A DNA stretch of 36,496 bases from Alphaproteobacteria bacterium (GTDB taxonomy: Bacteria; Pseudomonadota; Alphaproteobacteria; RF32; CAG-239): NCBI GenBank assembly GCA_017452885.1, contig JAFTLF010000025.1, positions 1-36,496 of the forward strand, written 5' to 3'. Positions within the stretch are counted from its first letter, which is position 1. Each line of letters opens with the position of its first letter. The position numbers were made by a program, and so were the translations under genes. Shown here in pieces: positions 19,703 through 26,900 of the stretch. A model generated the notes under the pieces. That model saw nothing but the letters and a program-made list of their open reading frames with translations. It was not told the origin of the DNA and searched no databases.

Positions 19703-20530
19703 ATGGACGAGTTGGAGCAATCATATCAGAAAATGGAAGAACATTTTTTGTCATCACGTTCATCGCGGTATGAAAATGACAAGCCTCAGTTAATTTTTGT
19801 TTTTTCTTCTCCAGGAGCCGGCAAAAGTAGTAATATTAAACCCATATTGAACTGGCAATTGCGACCGAAAACGATTGTTAATTTAGAAATTGATGAACTT
19901 AAGACATTTATTCCGTACGGTGCCAATATTGACAAAACCGCGAATGATTGGTTTTTGCGTCTTGTCGACCGAGCAATTGAACAACGTCGCAGTATTGTGA
20001 TTTTTCGCCAACGCAATATGCTTCAACTCAAACAGACTTTCAACATTTACAAAAAGGCTCAAAATGCGGGCTATTTGACACAGGCTACTTTTTTGGCATT
20101 GGACAAGGAGCGTAGTCGTTTGGGAATGATACATCGTTACGAATTTGCTTTAGACAATACTTTGGGTGGAAATGAAATTGATCGAGAAAATTATCCACGG
20201 AGGCCTAAATTTCTTAGTCATTATATTTTTTACAAAGCATTACCTGTGATGTTAAACGTCTGCTCTTTAAGTAAAACTGTTGATATTGTCAATGTTTATG
20301 ATAGAAACGTCGTGCGTTTGTCCTATGAGTATACAAAGACAGGACAAAGAAGCTCTTTATCAGCGTCACAAGCTTTGTGCCATGAGCGTAATCGCGTTTG
20401 GAGTCCAAATGAAATAAGTAGATTCAACCGTCGTCGTGATGAAGCCGAAACCAAAATGAAAGAACATGGACGCAGTTTTTTTGAAAAATTAAAATTTCAT
20501 TTTCTTACTGCTACGCCCAAAAACAAATAA
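19703..20530 (+). CDS. Zeta-toxin-like P-loop kinase
   Basis: PQLIFVFSSPGAGKSS Walker A, EIDELK, AQNAGY, RLGMIHRYE lid-like motif; AAGGAAGG RBS. Confidence 0.7.
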   Translation: MDELEQSYQKMEEHFLSSRSSRYENDKPQLIFVFSSPGAGKSSNIKPILNWQLRPKTIVNLEIDELKTFIPYGANIDKTANDWFLRLVDRAIEQRRSIVIFRQRNMLQLKQTFNIYKKAQNAGYLTQATFLALDKERSRLGMIHRYEFALDNTLGGNEIDRENYPRRPKFLSHYIFYKALPVMLNVCSLSKTVDIVNVYDRNVVRLSYEYTKTGQRSSLSASQALCHERNRVWSPNEISRFNRRRDEAETKMKEHGRSFFEKLKFHFLTATPKNK

Positions 20531-20546
20531 ATCAAAAATATTCTAA

Positions 20547-20575
20547 TTGACTCCGCTGAATCATTGTATTATCTT
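20547..20575 (+). promoter_or_regulatory. Sigma70-like promoter for the ileS leader
   Basis: TTGACT-17 nt-TATCTT, 30 nt before the leader ATG. Confidence 0.55.
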
Positions 20576-20605
20576 AAACAGCGAATTCATTATAAAGAGA
20601 AATTT

Positions 20606-20650
20606 ATGCGTAGTTTTTATATACATATCATATCACGTATTATCCCCTAG
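20606..20650 (+). CDS. Putative ileS leader peptide MRSFYIHIISRIIP
   Basis: ATG...TAG, 5 of 14 codons are Ile (ATA, ATC, ATA, ATT, ATC); weak AGAG SD; directly upstream of ileS. Confidence 0.75.
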   Translation: MRSFYIHIISRIIP

Positions 20651-20663
20651 GGGGATGTTTTTT
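20641..20663 (+). terminator. Attenuator-type intrinsic terminator in the ileS leader
   Basis: TATCCCC-TAG-GGGGATG followed by TTTTTT, lying between the promoter and ileS. Confidence 0.7.
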
Positions 20664-20727
20664 ATTGCTACACATATTCAACCAACCGTTTTTCATTTAA
20701 TTTAATCATATTTTAGGGTGTTTACGA

Positions 20728-23700
20728 ATGACTAAACATTATGCCGAAGTCAAGGCCAAACCAGACTTTGTTGAAGTCGAAAAAGAAGTCCTCAAGTTTT
20801 GGGAAGAAAACAAAACTTTTGAAAAATCTGTACATAATCGTGACGGTGCTGCCGAATTTGTTTTTTATGACGGACCTCCGTTTGCAAACGGTACTCCGCA
20901 CTATGGTCATATTATGGTGTCATACGTCAAGGATGTGGTTGCTCGCTATCAAACAATGAACGGCAAAAAAGTAGAGCGCCGTTTAGGGTGGGATTGCCAT
21001 GGCTTGCCGGCAGAAATGTCTGCTGAAAAACAACTGGGAGTATCCGGTCGTAAACAAATTGAAGAATACGGAGTCGAAAAGTTTAACGATTTTTGCCGCT
21101 CTGATGTTCTCAAATATTCCGGTATTTGGGTTGAAATGTTCAAACGTATCGGACGTTGGGTTGACTTTAACCACGATTACAAGACCATGGATTTGTCTTT
21201 TATGGAAAGCGTAATCTCCAACTTCAAACAGCTTTATGATAAAGGCTTGGTATATGAAGATTATCGTGTTTTACCATATTCTTGGGCTGCTGAAACACCG
21301 CTATCCAATTTTGAAGTCAATCAAGGTTATCAAGACAAAACAGATAACGCCATTACCGCGATGTTCAAGCTTGAAAACGGTATGAAGATTTTGGTTTGGA
21401 CAACTACTCCTTGGACCTTGCCTTCTAACCTTATGTTGGCAGTAGGTAATGATATTGATTATGTGATTATGGAAGAAGAAGGTCAGAAATATATTTTGGC
21501 TCGTGCGCTTCTTGGTCGCTATAAAAAACAGTTGGAAAAAGCTGTTGAAGTAGGTTCAATGAAAGGTTCTGACCTAGTTGGTATGAGCTATGAGCCGATG
21601 TTTCCCTACTTCAAACACCTGAAAGAGCAAGGATGCTTTAAGGTATTGTCAGGCGAGTTTGTTTCAACAGAAGACGGTACCGGTGTTGTTCATATTGCTC
21701 CTGGTTTTGGGCAAGATGACTTTGATGCTTGTCGCTCTTATAATGAGCATTTTCCGGTTGTTTGTCCGGTTGATGAAGCAGGCAAATTCACTGCCGAAGT
21801 ACCGGATTATCAAGGAAAACAAGTTTTTGAAACCAATGAACCCATTATGCAATGGCTCAAAGAAAACGGCTTACTTGTCAAAAAAGAGCAATATACCCAC
21901 TCTTATCCGTTCTGTTGGCGTACGGATACTCCGCTTATTTATAAAGCTATGTCAAGTTGGTTTGTTAAGGTTACCGATTTTCGTGATGACATGGTCAAAA
22001 ACAATCAACAAATTAATTGGGTTCCGGAACATATTAAAGACGGTCGTTTCGGCAAATGGTTGGAAGGTGCTCGTGATTGGTCAATTTCACGCAACCGTTT
22101 CTGGGGTACTCCGATTCCGGTCTGGAAGTCAGAAAATCCGGCATTTCCGCGCGTTGATGTGTTTGGTTCTGTTGCCGAAATCAAAGAGAAAACAGGTGTT
22201 GAGGTTAATAACCTGCACAAGCCTTATATTGATGATGTTGTTTATCCCAATCCGGATGATCCGTCAGGCAAGACGATGATGCGTCGTGTTGCCGATGTTT
22301 TCGATTGCTGGTTTGAATCTGGTTCAATGCCTTATGCGCAAGTTCATTATCCGTTTGACAATAAAGAATGGTTTGAAAACCACTTTCCGGCAGACTTTAT
22401 TGTTGAGGCAATGGATCAAACTCGCGGTTGGTTTTATACGTTGACAGTTTTGTCAACCGCATTGCATAATCGTCCGGCATTTAAGAATTGTATTTGTACC
22501 GGTTTGCTCATGGCCGAAGGCGGGCAAAAACTTTCCAAACGTCTTAAAAATTATCCGGATCCCAACAATGTATTGGATACCATGGGGTCGGACACTTTGC
22601 GTTGGTTTTTGGTTTCCTCACCGGTTTTGAAAGGTGGTAACTTGGCTGTCGATTTGGAAGGTAAAGAAATTGCCAAAGCCGCTCGTATCGCACAAATTCC
22701 GCTATGGAATGCTTTTTATTTCTTTACTCTTTATGCCAATGCCGAGGGGTATAAAGCCAAAGAAATAAGCAACTCAAGTGAGGCAATTGATAATTATATC
22801 TTGTCCAAACTCAAACATCTGCGTGATATTGTTAAACAGGGGCTTGATACTTATGATGTTGCTTTGTCATGTAATGAGATAGCCAAATTTATGGAAGTAT
22901 TGAATAACTGGTACATTCGTCGTACTCGTGATCGTTTCTGGGAAGGAGATGGACAAGCTTTTGATACTCTGTATACTGTTTTGGTTAATTTATGCAAGAT
23001 TATGGCTCCTTTAATGCCGTTTGTTTGTGAATACATTTTCAAAACATTAACCGATGAAGAATCTGTTCACTTGGTTGATTATCCTCAATTGGCGGAAATT
23101 AAGTCAGATGAGCGTCTGATGAATGAAATGGATTTTGTTCAAGATTTGTGTTCAGCGGCCAAGTTTATTCGCGAAGAGAAGAATTTGCGTAATCGCTTGC
23201 CTCTGAATAGTTTGACAGTTATCGGTGCTGAGTTTGAAAAATCTTATCAAGACATCGTCAAAGACGAATTAAACGTCAAAGAAGTACGTTTTGATAATAA
23301 TTTAAACAATTATGCAGAAAAGAAGATATATCTTTACACTCCGTTGTTAGGCAAGGCTCTTGGTAAGGATATGGGGCCGGTAATGGCTGCTTACAAACAA
23401 GGTGCATGGACTTTAAATACTGACGGAACATTGAATATTGGTGGTCAGACCCTCAAAAACGATTTATTTGAAGTTCGTCTAGAAATGAAAGACGGTGTGG
23501 CCGGTCGTTCGTTTGCCGATAATAAAGCGGTGGTAACTCTCGATACTGTTGTTACCGATGAACTTAAGCGAGAAGGTATGGCGCGTGATTTTGTGCGTTT
23601 AGTTCAAACACTGCGCAAAGACAAAGATTTCAATATTTCTGATCGTATAGAACTCAATTATGCAACTGCGGACAGCGAGTTGGCACAAGCTTTGGAAGAA

Positions 23701-23817
23701 AATAAAGATTACATCTCTGAGCAGGTTTTGGCTGTTAAATTTGCCAATGGCTGCACAGACGGAACCAAAGCTGATATTGAAGGCAGAGATATATGCTTTG
23801 ATGCTAAGGTAGCATAA
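20728..23817 (+). CDS. ileS: Isoleucine-tRNA ligase, type 2
   Basis: DGPPFANGTPHYGH, GWDCHGLP, WTTTPWTL, DWSISRNRFWGTPIP, KLSKR; 1029 aa with type-2 C-terminus (EGMARDFVRLVQ) and no C-terminal Zn finger. Confidence 0.96.
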   Translation: MTKHYAEVKAKPDFVEVEKEVLKFWEENKTFEKSVHNRDGAAEFVFYDGPPFANGTPHYGHIMVSYVKDVVARYQTMNGKKVERRLGWDCHGLPAEMSAEKQLGVSGRKQIEEYGVEKFNDFCRSDVLKYSGIWVEMFKRIGRWVDFNHDYKTMDLSFMESVISNFKQLYDKGLVYEDYRVLPYSWAAETPLSNFEVNQGYQDKTDNAITAMFKLENGMKILVWTTTPWTLPSNLMLAVGNDIDYVIMEEEGQKYILARALLGRYKKQLEKAVEVGSMKGSDLVGMSYEPMFPYFKHLKEQGCFKVLSGEFVSTEDGTGVVHIAPGFGQDDFDACRSYNEHFPVVCPVDEAGKFTAEVPDYQGKQVFETNEPIMQWLKENGLLVKKEQYTHSYPFCWRTDTPLIYKAMSSWFVKVTDFRDDMVKNNQQINWVPEHIKDGRFGKWLEGARDWSISRNRFWGTPIPVWKSENPAFPRVDVFGSVAEIKEKTGVEVNNLHKPYIDDVVYPNPDDPSGKTMMRRVADVFDCWFESGSMPYAQVHYPFDNKEWFENHFPADFIVEAMDQTRGWFYTLTVLSTALHNRPAFKNCICTGLLMAEGGQKLSKRLKNYPDPNNVLDTMGSDTLRWFLVSSPVLKGGNLAVDLEGKEIAKAARIAQIPLWNAFYFFTLYANAEGYKAKEISNSSEAIDNYILSKLKHLRDIVKQGLDTYDVALSCNEIAKFMEVLNNWYIRRTRDRFWEGDGQAFDTLYTVLVNLCKIMAPLMPFVCEYIFKTLTDEESVHLVDYPQLAEIKSDERLMNEMDFVQDLCSAAKFIREEKNLRNRLPLNSLTVIGAEFEKSYQDIVKDELNVKEVRFDNNLNNYAEKKIYLYTPLLGKALGKDMGPVMAAYKQGAWTLNTDGTLNIGGQTLKNDLFEVRLEMKDGVAGRSFADNKAVVTLDTVVTDELKREGMARDFVRLVQTLRKDKDFNISDRIELNYATADSELAQALEENKDYISEQVLAVKFANGCTDGTKADIEGRDICFDAKVA

Positions 23818-23841
23818 AAGCAATCATACCTCAGCAAAACG

Positions 23842-23876
23842 AATCCCCATATTTATCCGAATATGGGGATTTTTTT
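23842..23876 (+). terminator. ileS terminator
   Basis: AATCCCCATATT-TATCCG-AATATGGGGATT plus T run. Confidence 0.88.
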
Positions 23877-24050: not shown

Positions 24051-26849
24051 ATGAATATGGAACTTCAAGACGCTGTCAAAATTGTAAAAGCTGGAAATCT
24101 GGAATCTCGAGGCCTTTTTGAGCTGTGGGAGGTTGAGCAAGTTTTGCGTGATTCTGGTGATACCGAAAACTTAGCACTTTTTCAAAAAGAATTTTCTCCT
24201 CAAGAGATGAAAGAGGCAGATGCTATTGTCAAACCGCAAGTTGAACAGCGTCAAATGGAACTCATCGCCATCAAAGAAGCTTATACCGAAGATGAAGATT
24301 TCAAAAAAGGTATGGACAATTTTTGGAATGGAATTGAAATTGTTAATGATAAAGACGGTGATGAAGTAAAAGCAGAAGAGTTGCGCCGTCAGATAGAAGA
24401 AATCTCAGCCCAAGAAGCAGAAAAAGAAATCCTTGAAGGTAAATATAAGCCGGAAGATTATAATAAACTTCTGCAAAGTATTACGCAAGCTAACTGTATT
24501 CAACTTGTTGCTGTTTCTTCTGTATCCGAGATGCTTGCTAATGGCAAGAAGTTGAGTGGTGCAGCAGCAAAAGCCAAGGCCGGCAAAATCTTTTCCTCGT
24601 TATTTTCTGCCGAAAGAAAAGAAAAAATACAGATTAGTGGTAAATCTGCAATCGGTTTTATGGCCTCCAAAATGAATTCTTTGAGCAAGTTTGCTAAACG
24701 TTTGGCTGATCATACCGGATTAACTGCGTTTGCCAAGCAAGTTAAAAAAGTCGATGATAAGTTGACAAAAGCTTATCCCAAAACCTATCCGTTTGCTAAA
24801 AATCTTGCCAAAACTGGCGCTATCTCGTTTTTGTTCGGTGGTGTAGGCATTGCCGTATACAGTACTTATCGTTTGGGGCAAACGGTTAACCAGCAGCGTG
24901 AAGCCGCCCAAAAAGAGAAAAAAAGTTATTGGGAATATCTCAAAACCAATAAAGAACAGTTAGTTGTTCTTGGAGCAGGCGTAGTATCCAGTGCTGTTTC
25001 CCTCGCTGGTATGAGTCTTGACAACATGGGGTTAACCTCTCAACTTTTGGATGCCAATGCCGCCAAAGATGTAGCAGATGCAAGTGTTGCAACAGCAACT
25101 TCATCCGGTTTTTCATGGAGCGGAGCTTGGGAAGGAATCAAAAATAACTTTACCAACAGCAAATATTTATTGCGTACCGGCGCTGCCACAGCAGCATCAA
25201 TTGCAATCGCCTCTAAAGAATATTCCAAACTTTATGGGCTGAATCCTGAAAGTCAGGAATATAAGCTTCAACGTAGTAAAGCTCGTAAAGTACTGGCAGG
25301 AAGCGCTTTAGGTACACTTATTGGTTTAACAATCTCCGGAGCTGTTGGCGGAATGCATGGTGCCGAAGCCGATGTTGCTTCAGCAAATGATACGGATACT
25401 TCAGTAAAAAATAATTCTGGCAATATTAATAATGCTCTTTCCGGTGATAAGCAGTCAGCTTGGGATTGGAATAAAGGCGCAAAACCTTGGTTTAATAATT
25501 CTTTTTTGAATCAAAATGGTGTGGAATCAGCACCTGATAACTATGTTGAATTGCAACAAAATGAAACATTGATCGACAACGGTGTTGGAGATAAGTCAAC
25601 ACCAGAAGAAATAGTTGCAAATGATACCACCACCTATCTGTTTCCTAGTGAATATAATTCGGAAATGGGTATTACTCGTGCTCAATATAATTTATTGCAA
25701 CACCTCTACAAAACTGATGATTTAGACAGAATGTATCTTAATTTGTCCCAAGAAGGTGTAATGAATAATTTTGAGGGAATGACAAAAGAAGAGGTTTTGT
25801 TTAAGTATCAACGTTTAGATGCTTATACTGATCGTGTAGATTCTAATGGTAATTCCATTCAAGGAGCGATTCGTTACCATTATGAAGAAGAGATGACGGC
25901 AATCAATAAATTGTTGAATTGTGGTGATCAGCCTACGGCTGAGCAGTACGCGGCTATCAAGAAAGCGTTGGCCGTTATTGACGATCGCGGAGGTTATCAT
26001 GGACCGGGGTATGTTCCGACATCTTCTGTTATGATTAGTGCAGATGCAGGAGATAATTGTGCCGAAGGTCATGTCAATCACTGGAAACTTGGTTCCAGAA
26101 TTGTTGAAACAGAAAAAGTTGTTGAAAATGATGAAATAGTAAGAAGAGAAGTTTCTTCAATGGAACCTGTTGTCACTTACGAAAATTTACAATACGAAGC
26201 AACTTTTACTCCGACAGAATACCAACCGGAAACTGAAACAACAACCAAACTGGTTTATCATACACACGGAAAAGATGATATTATGGTTGGTCAAAACGGT
26301 ATAACAAGTATGCATATTGAACGTGATGGAGAGGTTGTTAACGTTAATAGCGAGAGTGAATTGCAAAAAGGCGATAAGCTTGTTATTAAATATGCTGATG
26401 GCGAGGAAAAAGTTTCTGCTAAAAAATATGCTGGATTTGAATCAACCAAAACTGAAGTTGAATATTCGCCATATAATGAAGACCAAATAAATGCTGAGGC
26501 TAAAGAGTTAGGCGTTAAACCTAATGAGCTAACCAAAGTAGATGGCGATTATATTAAAGTAACAGAAAACGGGGTTGTTCGTATTGATGTTGATGCAAAT
26601 ACCGGCAAAGCCACCGTTACCTTGACAGACTTTGATGGTAAACCGATGAATGCTCCGACAGATGTTCAACAGAATGTTGTAAACGCTACAGTAGAAGAAT
26701 TAAATCAGATCAACAAAGACAAAGAAGTTGTTACATACCAGGATGTCTCTAAAGCTAATAAAACCGGTAGCACAGAAAAAAGCGCAACTTCAGAAGTGGA
26801 TACTGTAAGCATGGTAAGACAAAGACTTATCAATCAGGGCAAAATTTAA
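24051..26849 (+). CDS. Large hypothetical protein with central hydrophobic helices
   Basis: 932 aa uninterrupted ORF, GAGG RBS, own promoter and terminator; no family recognised. Confidence 0.8.
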   Translation: MNMELQDAVKIVKAGNLESRGLFELWEVEQVLRDSGDTENLALFQKEFSPQEMKEADAIVKPQVEQRQMELIAIKEAYTEDEDFKKGMDNFWNGIEIVNDKDGDEVKAEELRRQIEEISAQEAEKEILEGKYKPEDYNKLLQSITQANCIQLVAVSSVSEMLANGKKLSGAAAKAKAGKIFSSLFSAERKEKIQISGKSAIGFMASKMNSLSKFAKRLADHTGLTAFAKQVKKVDDKLTKAYPKTYPFAKNLAKTGAISFLFGGVGIAVYSTYRLGQTVNQQREAAQKEKKSYWEYLKTNKEQLVVLGAGVVSSAVSLAGMSLDNMGLTSQLLDANAAKDVADASVATATSSGFSWSGAWEGIKNNFTNSKYLLRTGAATAASIAIASKEYSKLYGLNPESQEYKLQRSKARKVLAGSALGTLIGLTISGAVGGMHGAEADVASANDTDTSVKNNSGNINNALSGDKQSAWDWNKGAKPWFNNSFLNQNGVESAPDNYVELQQNETLIDNGVGDKSTPEEIVANDTTTYLFPSEYNSEMGITRAQYNLLQHLYKTDDLDRMYLNLSQEGVMNNFEGMTKEEVLFKYQRLDAYTDRVDSNGNSIQGAIRYHYEEEMTAINKLLNCGDQPTAEQYAAIKKALAVIDDRGGYHGPGYVPTSSVMISADAGDNCAEGHVNHWKLGSRIVETEKVVENDEIVRREVSSMEPVVTYENLQYEATFTPTEYQPETETTTKLVYHTHGKDDIMVGQNGITSMHIERDGEVVNVNSESELQKGDKLVIKYADGEEKVSAKKYAGFESTKTEVEYSPYNEDQINAEAKELGVKPNELTKVDGDYIKVTENGVVRIDVDANTGKATVTLTDFDGKPMNAPTDVQQNVVNATVEELNQINKDKEVVTYQDVSKANKTGSTEKSATSEVDTVSMVRQRLINQGKI

Positions 26850-26864
26850 TCCTGTACAATTGAT

Positions 26865-26900
26865 AAATACACCTCCGTCAGTCAGCGGAGGTGTATTTTT
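26865..26900. terminator. Bidirectional terminator between the 932-aa gene and alr
   Basis: AAATACACCTCCG-8 nt-CGGAGGTGTATTT perfect 13-bp stem between convergent genes. Confidence 0.88.

Follow-up and report, generated by a model that had tools for sequence, protein, structure and literature searches.

In the Escherichia coli pheST (pheM), trp, his, thr, and ilv attenuators, a leader open reading frame (ORF) containing cognate codons is followed by a hairpin and a U-run, and the position of the ribosome on the leader is the signal. In pyrBI and pyrE of the same species, the leader ORF enters the terminator and no antiterminator is involved, the signal being polymerase pausing at low UTP levels. 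TnaC, whose leader ends with a Pro codon and a stop codon, senses free tryptophan through conserved peptide residues, while the T-box binds uncharged tRNA directly and needs no translation. As far as its accessible text goes, one report (PMC1262725) names pheST as the proteobacterial model of leader-peptide control, and reports T-boxes, not leader peptides, for actinobacterial ileS. According to the accessible part of another (PMC13236596), the upstream ORF (uORF) of Mycobacterium tuberculosis ilvB1NC carries branched-chain codons, shown by mutation to be needed, and is associated with a Rho-independent terminator and an abundant short leader transcript; terminator and anti-terminator hairpins are described, and a ribosome at the stop codon masks the anti-terminator. 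In Caulobacter crescentus, CCNA_03934 ("ileS leader CDS") is a small translated ORF on the ileS mRNA that was used as a negative control, on the evidence of the accessible part of PMC4117421. The accessible portions of PMC4833913 and PMC10117765 do not mention ileS, and no description of an Ile-rich leader peptide before ileS came up in our full-text literature search. Among synthetase genes, control by tRNA charging is well known for Gram-positive T-boxes and a few leader peptides (e.g., pheST), and the searched literature held almost nothing on Alphaproteobacteria or on ileS. Here, we describe a leader element upstream of ileS, the isoleucyl-tRNA synthetase (IleRS) gene, in a 36,496-nt stretch of alphaproteobacterial DNA (contig JAFTLF010000025.1; referred to below as the window).

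The element consists of a promoter-like site of the sigma-70 type, a 14-codon Ile-rich ORF, a hairpin (P2) with the stop codon of the ORF as its loop, a U-rich run, and a long-range helix (P1) that takes up the start codon. Sequence comparisons show that it is a real, conserved leader, which probably senses Ile-tRNA without an antiterminator. Leader-peptide control by cognate codons is of a known kind, and the antiterminator-less two-helix architecture before ileS is a new variant. The Ile leader resembles the pheST and trp-type attenuators in that a short, cognate-codon-rich ORF, followed by a hairpin and a U-run, precedes a synthetase gene. It differs from the trp, his, and pheST type in that neither an antiterminator nor a separate pause hairpin was found, the stop codon lies in the loop of the putative terminator, and a long-range helix sequesters the start codon. 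With the ilvB1NC uORF, as described in the text accessible to us, it shares the richness in branched-chain codons; unlike ilvB1NC, it has no anti-terminator, the ribosome would mask the terminator itself, and the target is a synthetase gene and not a biosynthetic operon. As in pyrBI and pyrE, the leader ORF extends into the putative terminator, codons 12 to 14 of the Ile leader forming the 5' arm of P2, and no alternative pairing was found, while the cognate-codon enrichment, the stop codon in the loop, and the helix sequestering the start site set the Ile leader apart from them; U-rich tracts are present within the ORF of the window. Likenesses to the tnaC leader include the Pro-stop end, a ribosome proposed here to be held near the end of the ORF, a G-poor untranslated spacer, and the presence of Rho. 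Unlike tnaC, the Ile leader conserves only its Ile codons and its Ile-Ile-Pro (IIP) end in an otherwise variable peptide, and it has a hairpin and a U-run. The regulated gene, and the signal that we propose (i.e., the charging of tRNA-Ile), are those of the ileS T-boxes of Firmicutes and Actinobacteria, as these are presented in the accessible sources; unlike them, the Ile leader gave no T-box match and is proposed to rely on translation. CCNA_03934 is comparable in being a small ORF on an alphaproteobacterial ileS mRNA, and the accessible part of its source does not establish a relation to the Ile leader.

A conserved Ile-rich leader precedes ileS

Each part of the original prediction for the window, which was made from this sequence alone, could be read as claimed (i.e., the promoter TTGACT-17-TATCTT, the 14-codon ORF with 5 Ile codons, the stop-in-loop hairpin, T6, and ileS 65 nt farther on). 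Taken alone, the window element is statistically weak. Given an Ile share of 0.081 in the genome, 5 Ile codons among 13 non-Met codons correspond to p = 0.0026, the single-sequence fold is at the level of shuffled sequences (z = -0.08), and a shuffled sequence yields such promoter and terminator matches about equally often. It is the comparative evidence that is decisive.

The IleS search matched all 41 of the 41 first relatives; L022, where the contig ends inside ileS, and L024, where the N-terminal part is missing, were excluded from the upstream comparison. The complete element (i.e., an Ile-rich ORF ending with ATT ATC CCN and a stop codon inside the hairpin loop) was present at 22 of the 23 loci of this first set, and L025, which belongs to another family (64% IleS identity), did not carry it. 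Among 30 further loci from other genera of the family, 26 were complete, one (L047) was partial, and three lacked the element, so that the combined sets held a complete element at 48 of 53 ileS loci, the hairpin only at L047, and none at 4. The three loci without a leader (L054 and L059 of genus g21, and L060 of g34) have a plain promoter-like region in its place and retain the same type-2 ileS (80 to 87% identity over 400 amino acids [aa]); these two genera are a natural comparison group for the loss of the leader. Lastly, 320 species-level genomes encode a close relative of the IleS in the window, and all of the 80 loci kept from them for analysis carried the element, 14 of these being duplicates of sequences from the earlier sets. 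These 80 loci come from metagenome-assembled genomes of uncultured gut and rumen "Alphaproteobacteria."

The pooled set comprised 114 distinct leader sequences (102 distinct peptides), to which counts out of 114 refer below. Conservation in relatives of the Ile codons, the frame, and the stem, as expected under the original prediction, was found in these 114 leaders, and about 21 genera share the ORF with its Ile bias and frame, as well as the placement of the stop codon in the loop. A 15-nt core motif (ATTATCCCNTRRGGG) occurred in exactly one copy in 169 of the 201 sampled genomes of the order and in 21 of 22 genera, while its reversed control gave 1 match in all across the same 201 genomes. 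Most members of a large lineage of uncultured gut and rumen bacteria thus carry the element. Among the genera that lost the leader, the motif was found in 1 of the 24 genomes of g21 (an ATGA-type match that looks like chance) and in 0 of 1 genome of g34. At every locus where its position relative to the gene was located, the element lies upstream of ileS. When the genome was scanned for intergenic ORFs of 7 to 35 codons with a stop codon in a hairpin loop, 35 candidates were obtained, of which only the ileS leader was biased toward an amino acid; no sister element before another gene of this genome was found among these candidates.

Outside the family, the element was found at only one (L146) of 28 alphaproteobacterial ileS loci; other Ile-rich uORF matches among these loci were weak ORFs with three Ile codons and no hairpin. 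Six further class-level ileS loci did not carry the element. A class-wide pattern matched 0 of 397 genomes outside the family, a count of little weight since the four-G requirement of the pattern sees the CCCC variant only and thus under-counts; its tally includes the unpublished genome G245, on which no conclusion here depends. Two atypical loci are recorded here as separate observations. At L146 (G260:C72), which belongs to a 2.3-Mb genome of another family of the class (290 contigs, 6% contamination), a typical leader encoding MSDIRSISIIISIIIP stands before a type-2 ileS and could be a result of mis-binning, gene transfer, or a wider distribution. L047 (G184:C66) retains the hairpin and the IIP-stop end in a frame that has no ATG, the only candidate start codon being a TTG five codons before the stop codon; this copy may be degenerating or may use an unusual start codon.

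Codon composition of the leader

The leaders are 12 to 17 codons long, with 14 or 15 codons in 104 of the 114. In a comparison of the three frames, Ile accounts for 33% of the in-frame codons, compared with 8.7% and 5.2% in the other two, and its share of 35% in the pooled leaders contrasts with 8.1% in the long ORFs of the genome. In the window, the leader reads ATG CGT AGT TTT TAT ATA CAT ATC ATA TCA CGT ATT ATC CCC, followed by TAG at 20648-20650, and its 5 Ile codons are ATA at codons 6 and 9, ATC at codons 8 and 13, and ATT at codon 12.

The end of the peptide is nearly fixed, being IIP in 113 leaders and TIP in 1, with a Pro codon before the stop codon in all 114. The last three codons are ATT ATC CCT (66 leaders), ATT ATC CCC (47 leaders), or ACC ATC CCT (1 leader). 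The stop codon, which is TAG in 97 leaders, TAA in 16, and TGA in 1, always lies inside the hairpin loop. Farther upstream, at -4, -6, and -7 relative to the stop codon, synonymous Ile codons replace one another (e.g., ATA 15, ATT 29, and ATC 21 at -7; ATA 4, ATT 51, and ATC 12 at -4).

A preference for ATA is apparent at the beginning of the Ile-coding part. Codon 6 is the first to encode Ile in 65 leaders, and ATA serves as the first Ile codon in 91. In total, codon 6 encodes Ile in 87 leaders, 79 of which use ATA. When the last three codons are excluded, the leaders contain 161 ATA, 125 ATT, and 64 ATC codons (ATA, 161 of 350), while ATA represents 23% of the Ile codons genome-wide (binomial p = 6e-21 for the excess in the leaders). 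In organisms with TilS, ATA is read by a lysidine-modified minor tRNA (tRNA-Ile2). Since the genome encodes tilS (172.6 bits; cut-off, 93.6), ATA should be read by this dedicated lysidine tRNA. The 36 tRNA genes recovered include only 2 with CAT and do not include tRNA-Ile(GAT), and their numbers are unusable because the tRNA set of the fragmented assembly (139 contigs) is incomplete. The ATA preference offers a way of asking whether cells monitor the minor tRNA-Ile2 specifically.

Two helices enclose the leader ORF

Throughout the genus of the window, a GCACATA segment downstream of the T-run complements the leader start region TATGTGC, forming P1. In the window, TATGCGTAG pairs with CTACACATA with a single C-A mismatch. 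P1 was tested as a specified structure on an alignment of 22 sequences of the genus (alignment A1), in which 82.7% of the cells were paired and 7 of the 10 pairs had changed on both sides (e.g., GC to AU at columns 38/105 and CG to UA at columns 39/104). None of 500 shuffles reached the observed covariation score or percentage of paired cells, and the covariation score was above those of all slid controls. In other genera, the sequence of P1 differs while the complementarity is kept, as illustrated by the pairing of AAAAAGATGAAT with ATTCATCTTTTT in L058, AAAAGATG with CATCTTTT in L042, ATAAATGaCCGCAT with ATGCGGCATTTAT in L049, and TGCAAAAATG with CATTTTTGCA in L105.

An alignment-free test gave the same indication. 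For 48 leaders, the mean energy of the cognate P1 duplex was -10.95 kcal/mol, compared with -8.09 kcal/mol for non-cognate combinations (0 of 5000 permutations as low), and for 27 representatives with less than 62% identity, the means were -10.71 and -7.37 kcal/mol, respectively (0 of 10,000 permutations as low). The cognate partner was the single best for 6 of these 27 representatives and among the top three for 14. Since related sequences inflate shuffle tests, the case for P1 leans mainly on the diverged representatives and the explicit examples. In unconstrained minimum free energy folds, P1 (at least 5 bp) and P2 (at least 4 bp) both formed in 101 of the 114 leaders; 6 folds were without P1 and 7 were without P2. 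P2 is nearly invariant in sequence and shows no compensatory changes in A1; its folding energy in the window is -9.1 kcal/mol. The original prediction had proposed a minimal design of an ORF joined to a hairpin, and in doing so overlooked P1: because this second helix covaries, the element goes beyond such a design.

In 101 of the 114 leaders, P2 is followed by a U-rich run, which is located 0 to 8 nt from P2 in most of them; it overlaps the 3' strand of P1 in 68, precedes it in 29, and follows it in 4. A T-run directly after the hairpin, as originally predicted, thus holds for the genus of the window, where a 7-bp stem rich in GC stands directly before T6, and does not describe the 68 leaders in which the U-run is the 3' end of the P1 strand and the 3' strands of P2 and P1 are contiguous. 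This contiguous arrangement resembles a single long terminator stem from which the ORF body bulges on the 5' side. In the genus of the window (29 leaders), the U-run separates the 3' strands of P2 and P1, P1 cannot form until the termination point has been passed, and P2 with T6 looks like a small stand-alone terminator.

Searches for a competing structure were negative. For antiterminator pairings between the ORF body and the region 3' of the stop codon, and between the start region and the ORF body, cognate combinations had no advantage (9415 and 9968 of 10,000 permutations, respectively, were at least as good). If anything, cognate pairs were weaker, and the ORF body seems to avoid pairing with its neighbors. 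It contains 9.8% G and 18.1% C in the 114 leaders, in agreement with the earlier remark that no G-rich upstream segment exists from which an antiterminator could form. With Rfam 15, no family reached its gathering score anywhere in the window, and neither a T-box nor an amino-acid leader model was matched; when matches up to E = 10 were admitted over 20480-20780, a single chance long noncoding RNA match (E = 5.8) was obtained. A translational gate formed by the C-rich P2 arm and the ileS Shine-Dalgarno sequence was also considered and was rejected, since no covariation was seen (398 of 3000 permutations as good). The parts of the element and neighboring features are listed in Table 1.

TABLE 1 Features of the ileS leader region in the window
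Feature	Coordinates	Strand	Basis
Zeta-toxin-like gene before the leader promoter	19703..20530	+	Pfam PF06414, E = 6.9e-12; no NCBIfam match
Promoter-like site TTGACT, 17 nt, TATCTT	20547-20552 and 20570-20575	+	Scan, 9/12 matches
Shine-Dalgarno-like purine-rich tract AAAGAGAAA of the leader ORF	20594..20602	+	Similar purine tracts before ATG in relatives
P1 5' strand TATGCGTAG, contains the leader start codon	20605..20613	+	Pairing with 20668-20676, covariation
Leader ORF, 14 sense codons plus TAG, peptide MRSFYIHIISRIIP	20606..20650	+	Read from sequence
ATA codon 6, first Ile codon, proposed stall station 1	20621..20623	+	Conservation of codon 6
ATT ATC CCC (Ile-Ile-Pro), P2 5' arm, proposed stall station 2	20639..20647	+	Near-invariant last three codons
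P2 hairpin TATCCCC-TAG-GGGGATG, loop is the stop codon	20641..20657	+	7 pairs, 4 GC, loop of 3 nt
U-rich run T6ATT (T6, 20658-20663), candidate termination or pause site	20658..20666	+	Sequence
P1 3' strand CTACACATA	20668..20676	+	Alignment, covariation
G-poor, C-containing unstructured spacer	20677..20715	+	Base composition
ileS, type-2 (eukaryote-like) isoleucyl-tRNA synthetase, 1029 aa, presumed regulated gene	20728..23817	+	Profile matches
Gene-end terminator of ileS, 14-bp stem plus T-run (contrast)	23841..23872	+	Terminator scan

Proposed mechanism of ileS control

The sequence comparisons establish the conserved ORF with its codon pattern, both helices, and the promoter, and no competing pairing was found; leader translation, termination, and the direction and timing of the response are inferred. 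Our preferred reading, to which we give an even chance, is that of a ribosome-mediated ileS leader that senses Ile-tRNA and works without an antiterminator. A dedicated promoter would produce a transcript, expected to start at about 20582 (a position derived from the promoter-like site), whose first ~95 nt would fold into P1 and P2. P1 would join the ribosome-binding and start-codon region of the leader to the segment after the hairpin, P2 would hold the stop codon in its loop, and the 14-codon ORF would represent the 5' half of this closed "off" fold. A single ribosome would load before the 3' strand of P1 is transcribed. When Ile-tRNA is scarce, this ribosome would wait at ATA codon 6 with its rear over the 5' strand of P1 or, alternatively, stall at ATT-ATC with its front holding the 5' arm of P2; the fold would stay open, and the polymerase would proceed into ileS. 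When Ile-tRNA is plentiful, the ORF would be cleared, P2 and P1 would close, and transcription would stop at the U-run, while closed P1 would lock the leader start site against new ribosomes. The "off" state may be executed by either intrinsic or Rho-dependent termination. The architecture is compact (~95 nt), lacks the competing hairpin deemed essential in textbook models, and adds a helix that locks the start codon. It thus provides a clean test case for whether simple ribosome occlusion suffices for attenuation, and synthetic charging sensors could use it as a candidate minimal part.

We take the stretch of mRNA that a ribosome holds single-stranded to reach from ~12-15 nt upstream of the first P-site base to ~12-13 nt downstream of it. 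A ribosome waiting with ATA codon 6 in its A site would have its P site at 20618 and would cover the start codon and codons 2 and 3 (i.e., the 5' strand of P1), leaving P2 free. A stall with codon 12 or 13 in the A site would place the 5' arm of P2 inside the ribosome, and a stall at codons 8 and 9 would fully cover neither 5' strand. One ribosome, on an ORF barely longer than its footprint, would guard the 5' strand of either P1 or P2. The early Ile codons would be conserved because a stall there guards the 5' strand of P1, which occlusion of the hairpin only cannot explain, and this geometry would account for the constrained length of the ORF and the unchanging last two Ile codons. The original prediction had the stalled ribosome covering the 5' arm of the hairpin; on these footprints, this would apply only to the last two Ile codons, and a ribosome at ATA codon 6 would instead cover the 5' strand of P1. 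A more specific version of the occlusion reading, which is tentative and which we consider somewhat doubtful as a joint claim, is a one-ribosome, antiterminator-less switch in which the ORF is the 5' strand of a two-helix lock and two spaced stall stations guard the helices, the first being the near-obligatory ATA codon 6 read by the TilS-dependent tRNA-Ile2 and the second being ATT-ATC before the Pro codon and the stop codon. If this is true, ileS would provide the first demonstration of a synthetase gene tied to the charging of the minor ATA-reading tRNA, and the leader would be the smallest self-contained charging sensor (~95 nt).

Several points weigh against occlusion by a stalled ribosome. 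The polymerase hides about 14 nt of nascent RNA, and the ribosome covers about 12-15 nt downstream of the P site. Because of these footprint sizes, a ribosome cannot reach the stop codon at 20648 while the polymerase is at the U-run (20658-20666). The idea in the original prediction that fast release lets the hairpin form is doubtful on this ground, since a stop codon 15-18 nt before the termination point would be unreachable until the polymerase is past it; a sequence of finishing, leaving, and then terminating would need a long pause and is itself doubtful. In E. coli, according to the accessible part of PMC4824070, terminators within the first 100 bp of an ORF are nearly unhindered because the ribosome has not caught up, unless a pause brings the two machines into step. 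If the leader has no pause site, the ribosome might thus be irrelevant to termination there. With the ribosome stalled at codon 6, neither P2 nor the U-run would be covered, and in the genus of the window, the 3' strand of P1 cannot aid termination because it lies after the U-run. The 7 pairs of P2 are few compared with the 11-14 pairs of the gene-end terminators of this genome, and in many genera the U-run may be just the complement of the purine-rich ribosome-binding site. RNAalifold applied to A1 recovered only the four pairs of the P2 core. Finally, the support for this reading comes from sequence comparison.

Alternative explanations

Because of the timing problem and the E. coli terminator data, a version in which Rho executes the "off" state is kept as a serious rival, though we regard it as unlikely. 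As in tna, P1 would lock the start site, the naked G-poor ORF body and the spacer would form a split Rho-loading site, and Rho would halt the polymerase before ileS is translated, while an Ile-stalled ribosome would cover the upstream half of the loading site. This version is indifferent to the position of the U-run, which reconciles the genus of the window with the others, and it gives P1 a clear job. It is consistent with the presence of rho (686 bits; cut-off, 509), with the Pro-stop ending shared by all 114 leaders and TnaC, and with an ORF body that is poor in G and seems to avoid pairing with its neighbors. The spacer between the leader stop codon and ileS (66-117 nt; median, 80; sequence unconserved) contains 4.9% G and 15.6% C across the 114 leaders, compared with 19% each in the genome; in the window, 2 G occur in the 55 nt before the ileS Shine-Dalgarno sequence, a number as low in only 13 of 754 upstream windows (a crude background that includes coding overlap). 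Yet in an AT-rich genome, upstream regions poor in G are by no means rare, only ~30 nt of the ~100-nt candidate loading site would lie under a stalled ribosome, a rut site is not provable from sequence alone, and the closeness of the U-rich run to P2 is left without explanation. The inverse response, which we consider improbable, would be a coupling sensor like pyrBI and pyrE, in which a ribosome following closely melts P2 and a ribosome delayed at Ile codons permits termination, so that ileS output would rise with translation speed and fall with scarce Ile-tRNA. The stop codon within the hairpin and the end of the U-run 15-18 nt after the stop codon suit such a sensor, as does the early stall at ATA codon 6, which in the genus of the window would leave P2 and T6 free. 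According to the accessible part of PMC4824070, terminators a few base pairs after a stop codon are almost wholly repressed by the ribosome. However, the sensor would amount to positive feedback, with less charged tRNA giving less IleRS, and such a loop would be a difficult fit for an essential enzyme. It explains neither P1 nor the invariant Ile codons within reach of the hairpin, and in most genera the 3' strand of P1 separates P2 from the U-run, so P2 alone should terminate poorly.

Control after transcription, in which the closed fold or a leader with a stalled ribosome alters the stability of the ileS mRNA or the delivery of ribosomes with no termination in the leader, appears about as improbable as the coupling sensor. 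In its favor, every lineage has the leader start site sequestered by P1, P2 is shorter than real terminators, and one RNA contig runs from the hairpin into ileS. The latter was found in four bovine-gut metatranscriptome runs, whose contigs cover only small parts of the stretch; one 151-nt contig (depth 2) was identical to the window at 20642-20792 and joins the hairpin, the U-run, the 3' strand of P1, the spacer, and the start of ileS, which is a weak hint since DNA carry-over is possible. No contig covered 20547-20641, an absence that carries no information. On the other hand, the ileS Shine-Dalgarno sequence and the P2 arm do not covary, as described above, the unstructured and unconserved spacer offers no visible gate on the ileS start, and its length is great for reinitiation. 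It is very improbable that the leader encodes an arrest peptide, whose pause at Ile-Ile-Pro-stop, perhaps modulated by a small molecule, would be the regulated step. The constancy of the IIP-stop end (113 of 114) and of the Pro-stop (114 of 114) agrees with such a peptide, as does ATT at -3 in 113 leaders although this codon is not always paired, while ATC CCN is required by the P2 arm anyway, the upstream Ile enrichment and the ATA preference are better explained by codon sensing, and the remaining peptide varies (102 distinct peptides among the 114 leaders). Lastly, we give almost no credence to a chance ORF beside the terminator of the upstream gene. The zeta-toxin-like gene in the window is co-directional, no other terminator was found after it before 20641 in a scan of the window, and the single-sequence statistics are weak; P2 could additionally serve as the terminator of this gene in the window. 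But the frame, the codons, and the stop codon in the loop are kept in 114 leaders, and a promoter, predicted from the start, is conserved between the upstream gene and the ORF, with TTGAC located 56-73 nt upstream of the leader ATG in 113 of the 114. The nearest upstream long ORF is divergent at 47 and co-directional at 58 of the 105 assessable loci (leaving out 7 loci with too little flanking sequence and 2 without a long ORF). The element tracks ileS and not the upstream gene. Given the divergent neighbors, the hairpin cannot be merely the terminator of the upstream gene.

Genomic context and additional features

The gene downstream of the leader matched the ileS profile TIGR00392 with 881.9 bits (cut-off, 621.4) and contains the Pfam domains tRNA-synt_1 and Anticodon_1 and the C-terminal DUF5915. 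Its scores against the MupA and MupB models (723 and 743 bits) were below the cut-offs of 1900 bits. The distance from the leader stop codon to ileS is 77 nt in the window, and that from the T-run to the ileS ATG (20728) is 65 nt. Neither ilvC nor ilvD was found in the 96.9%-complete assembly, while 14 of 14 control genomes gave matches. On the basis of this gene content, the organism is probably an Ile auxotroph that depends on external isoleucine and valine, and ileS may therefore be its main Ile-specific gene to regulate. Its lineage, too, seems incapable of isoleucine synthesis.

Long-stem terminators comparable to that at 23841-23872 follow ileS in relatives. Arms of the type ATCCCC/GGGGAT shared between the leader hairpin and the terminator 3' of ileS were considered as a possible link and dismissed as probable coincidence, since they were found at only 8 of 88 loci.

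Some features of the region after P2 were noted in passing. In the window (20651-20701), the 3' arm of P2 together with the following G gives GGGG(G)ATG, which by eye opens a second mini-ORF, MFFIATHIQPTVFHLI. Such a mini-ORF is present in roughly one-third of the leaders by a rough estimate made by eye, and several versions in relatives hold Ile codons; it is not universal, and its spacing to any Shine-Dalgarno sequence is poor. The motif ACATA lies 17-21 nt after the end of the leader stop codon in 68 of the 114 leaders and 13-24 nt after it in 77 (region 20664-20715 in the window), and this spacing holds even in genera where the 3' strand of P1 is a different, more proximal segment. The motif AATCAA(T) is found in the spacer of 42 of the 114 leaders, roughly 25 nt before the ileS Shine-Dalgarno sequence. 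Downstream of ileS, a 932-aa ORF (24051-26849) had no Pfam or NCBIfam match and is followed by a terminator with a 14-bp stem at 26865-26898.

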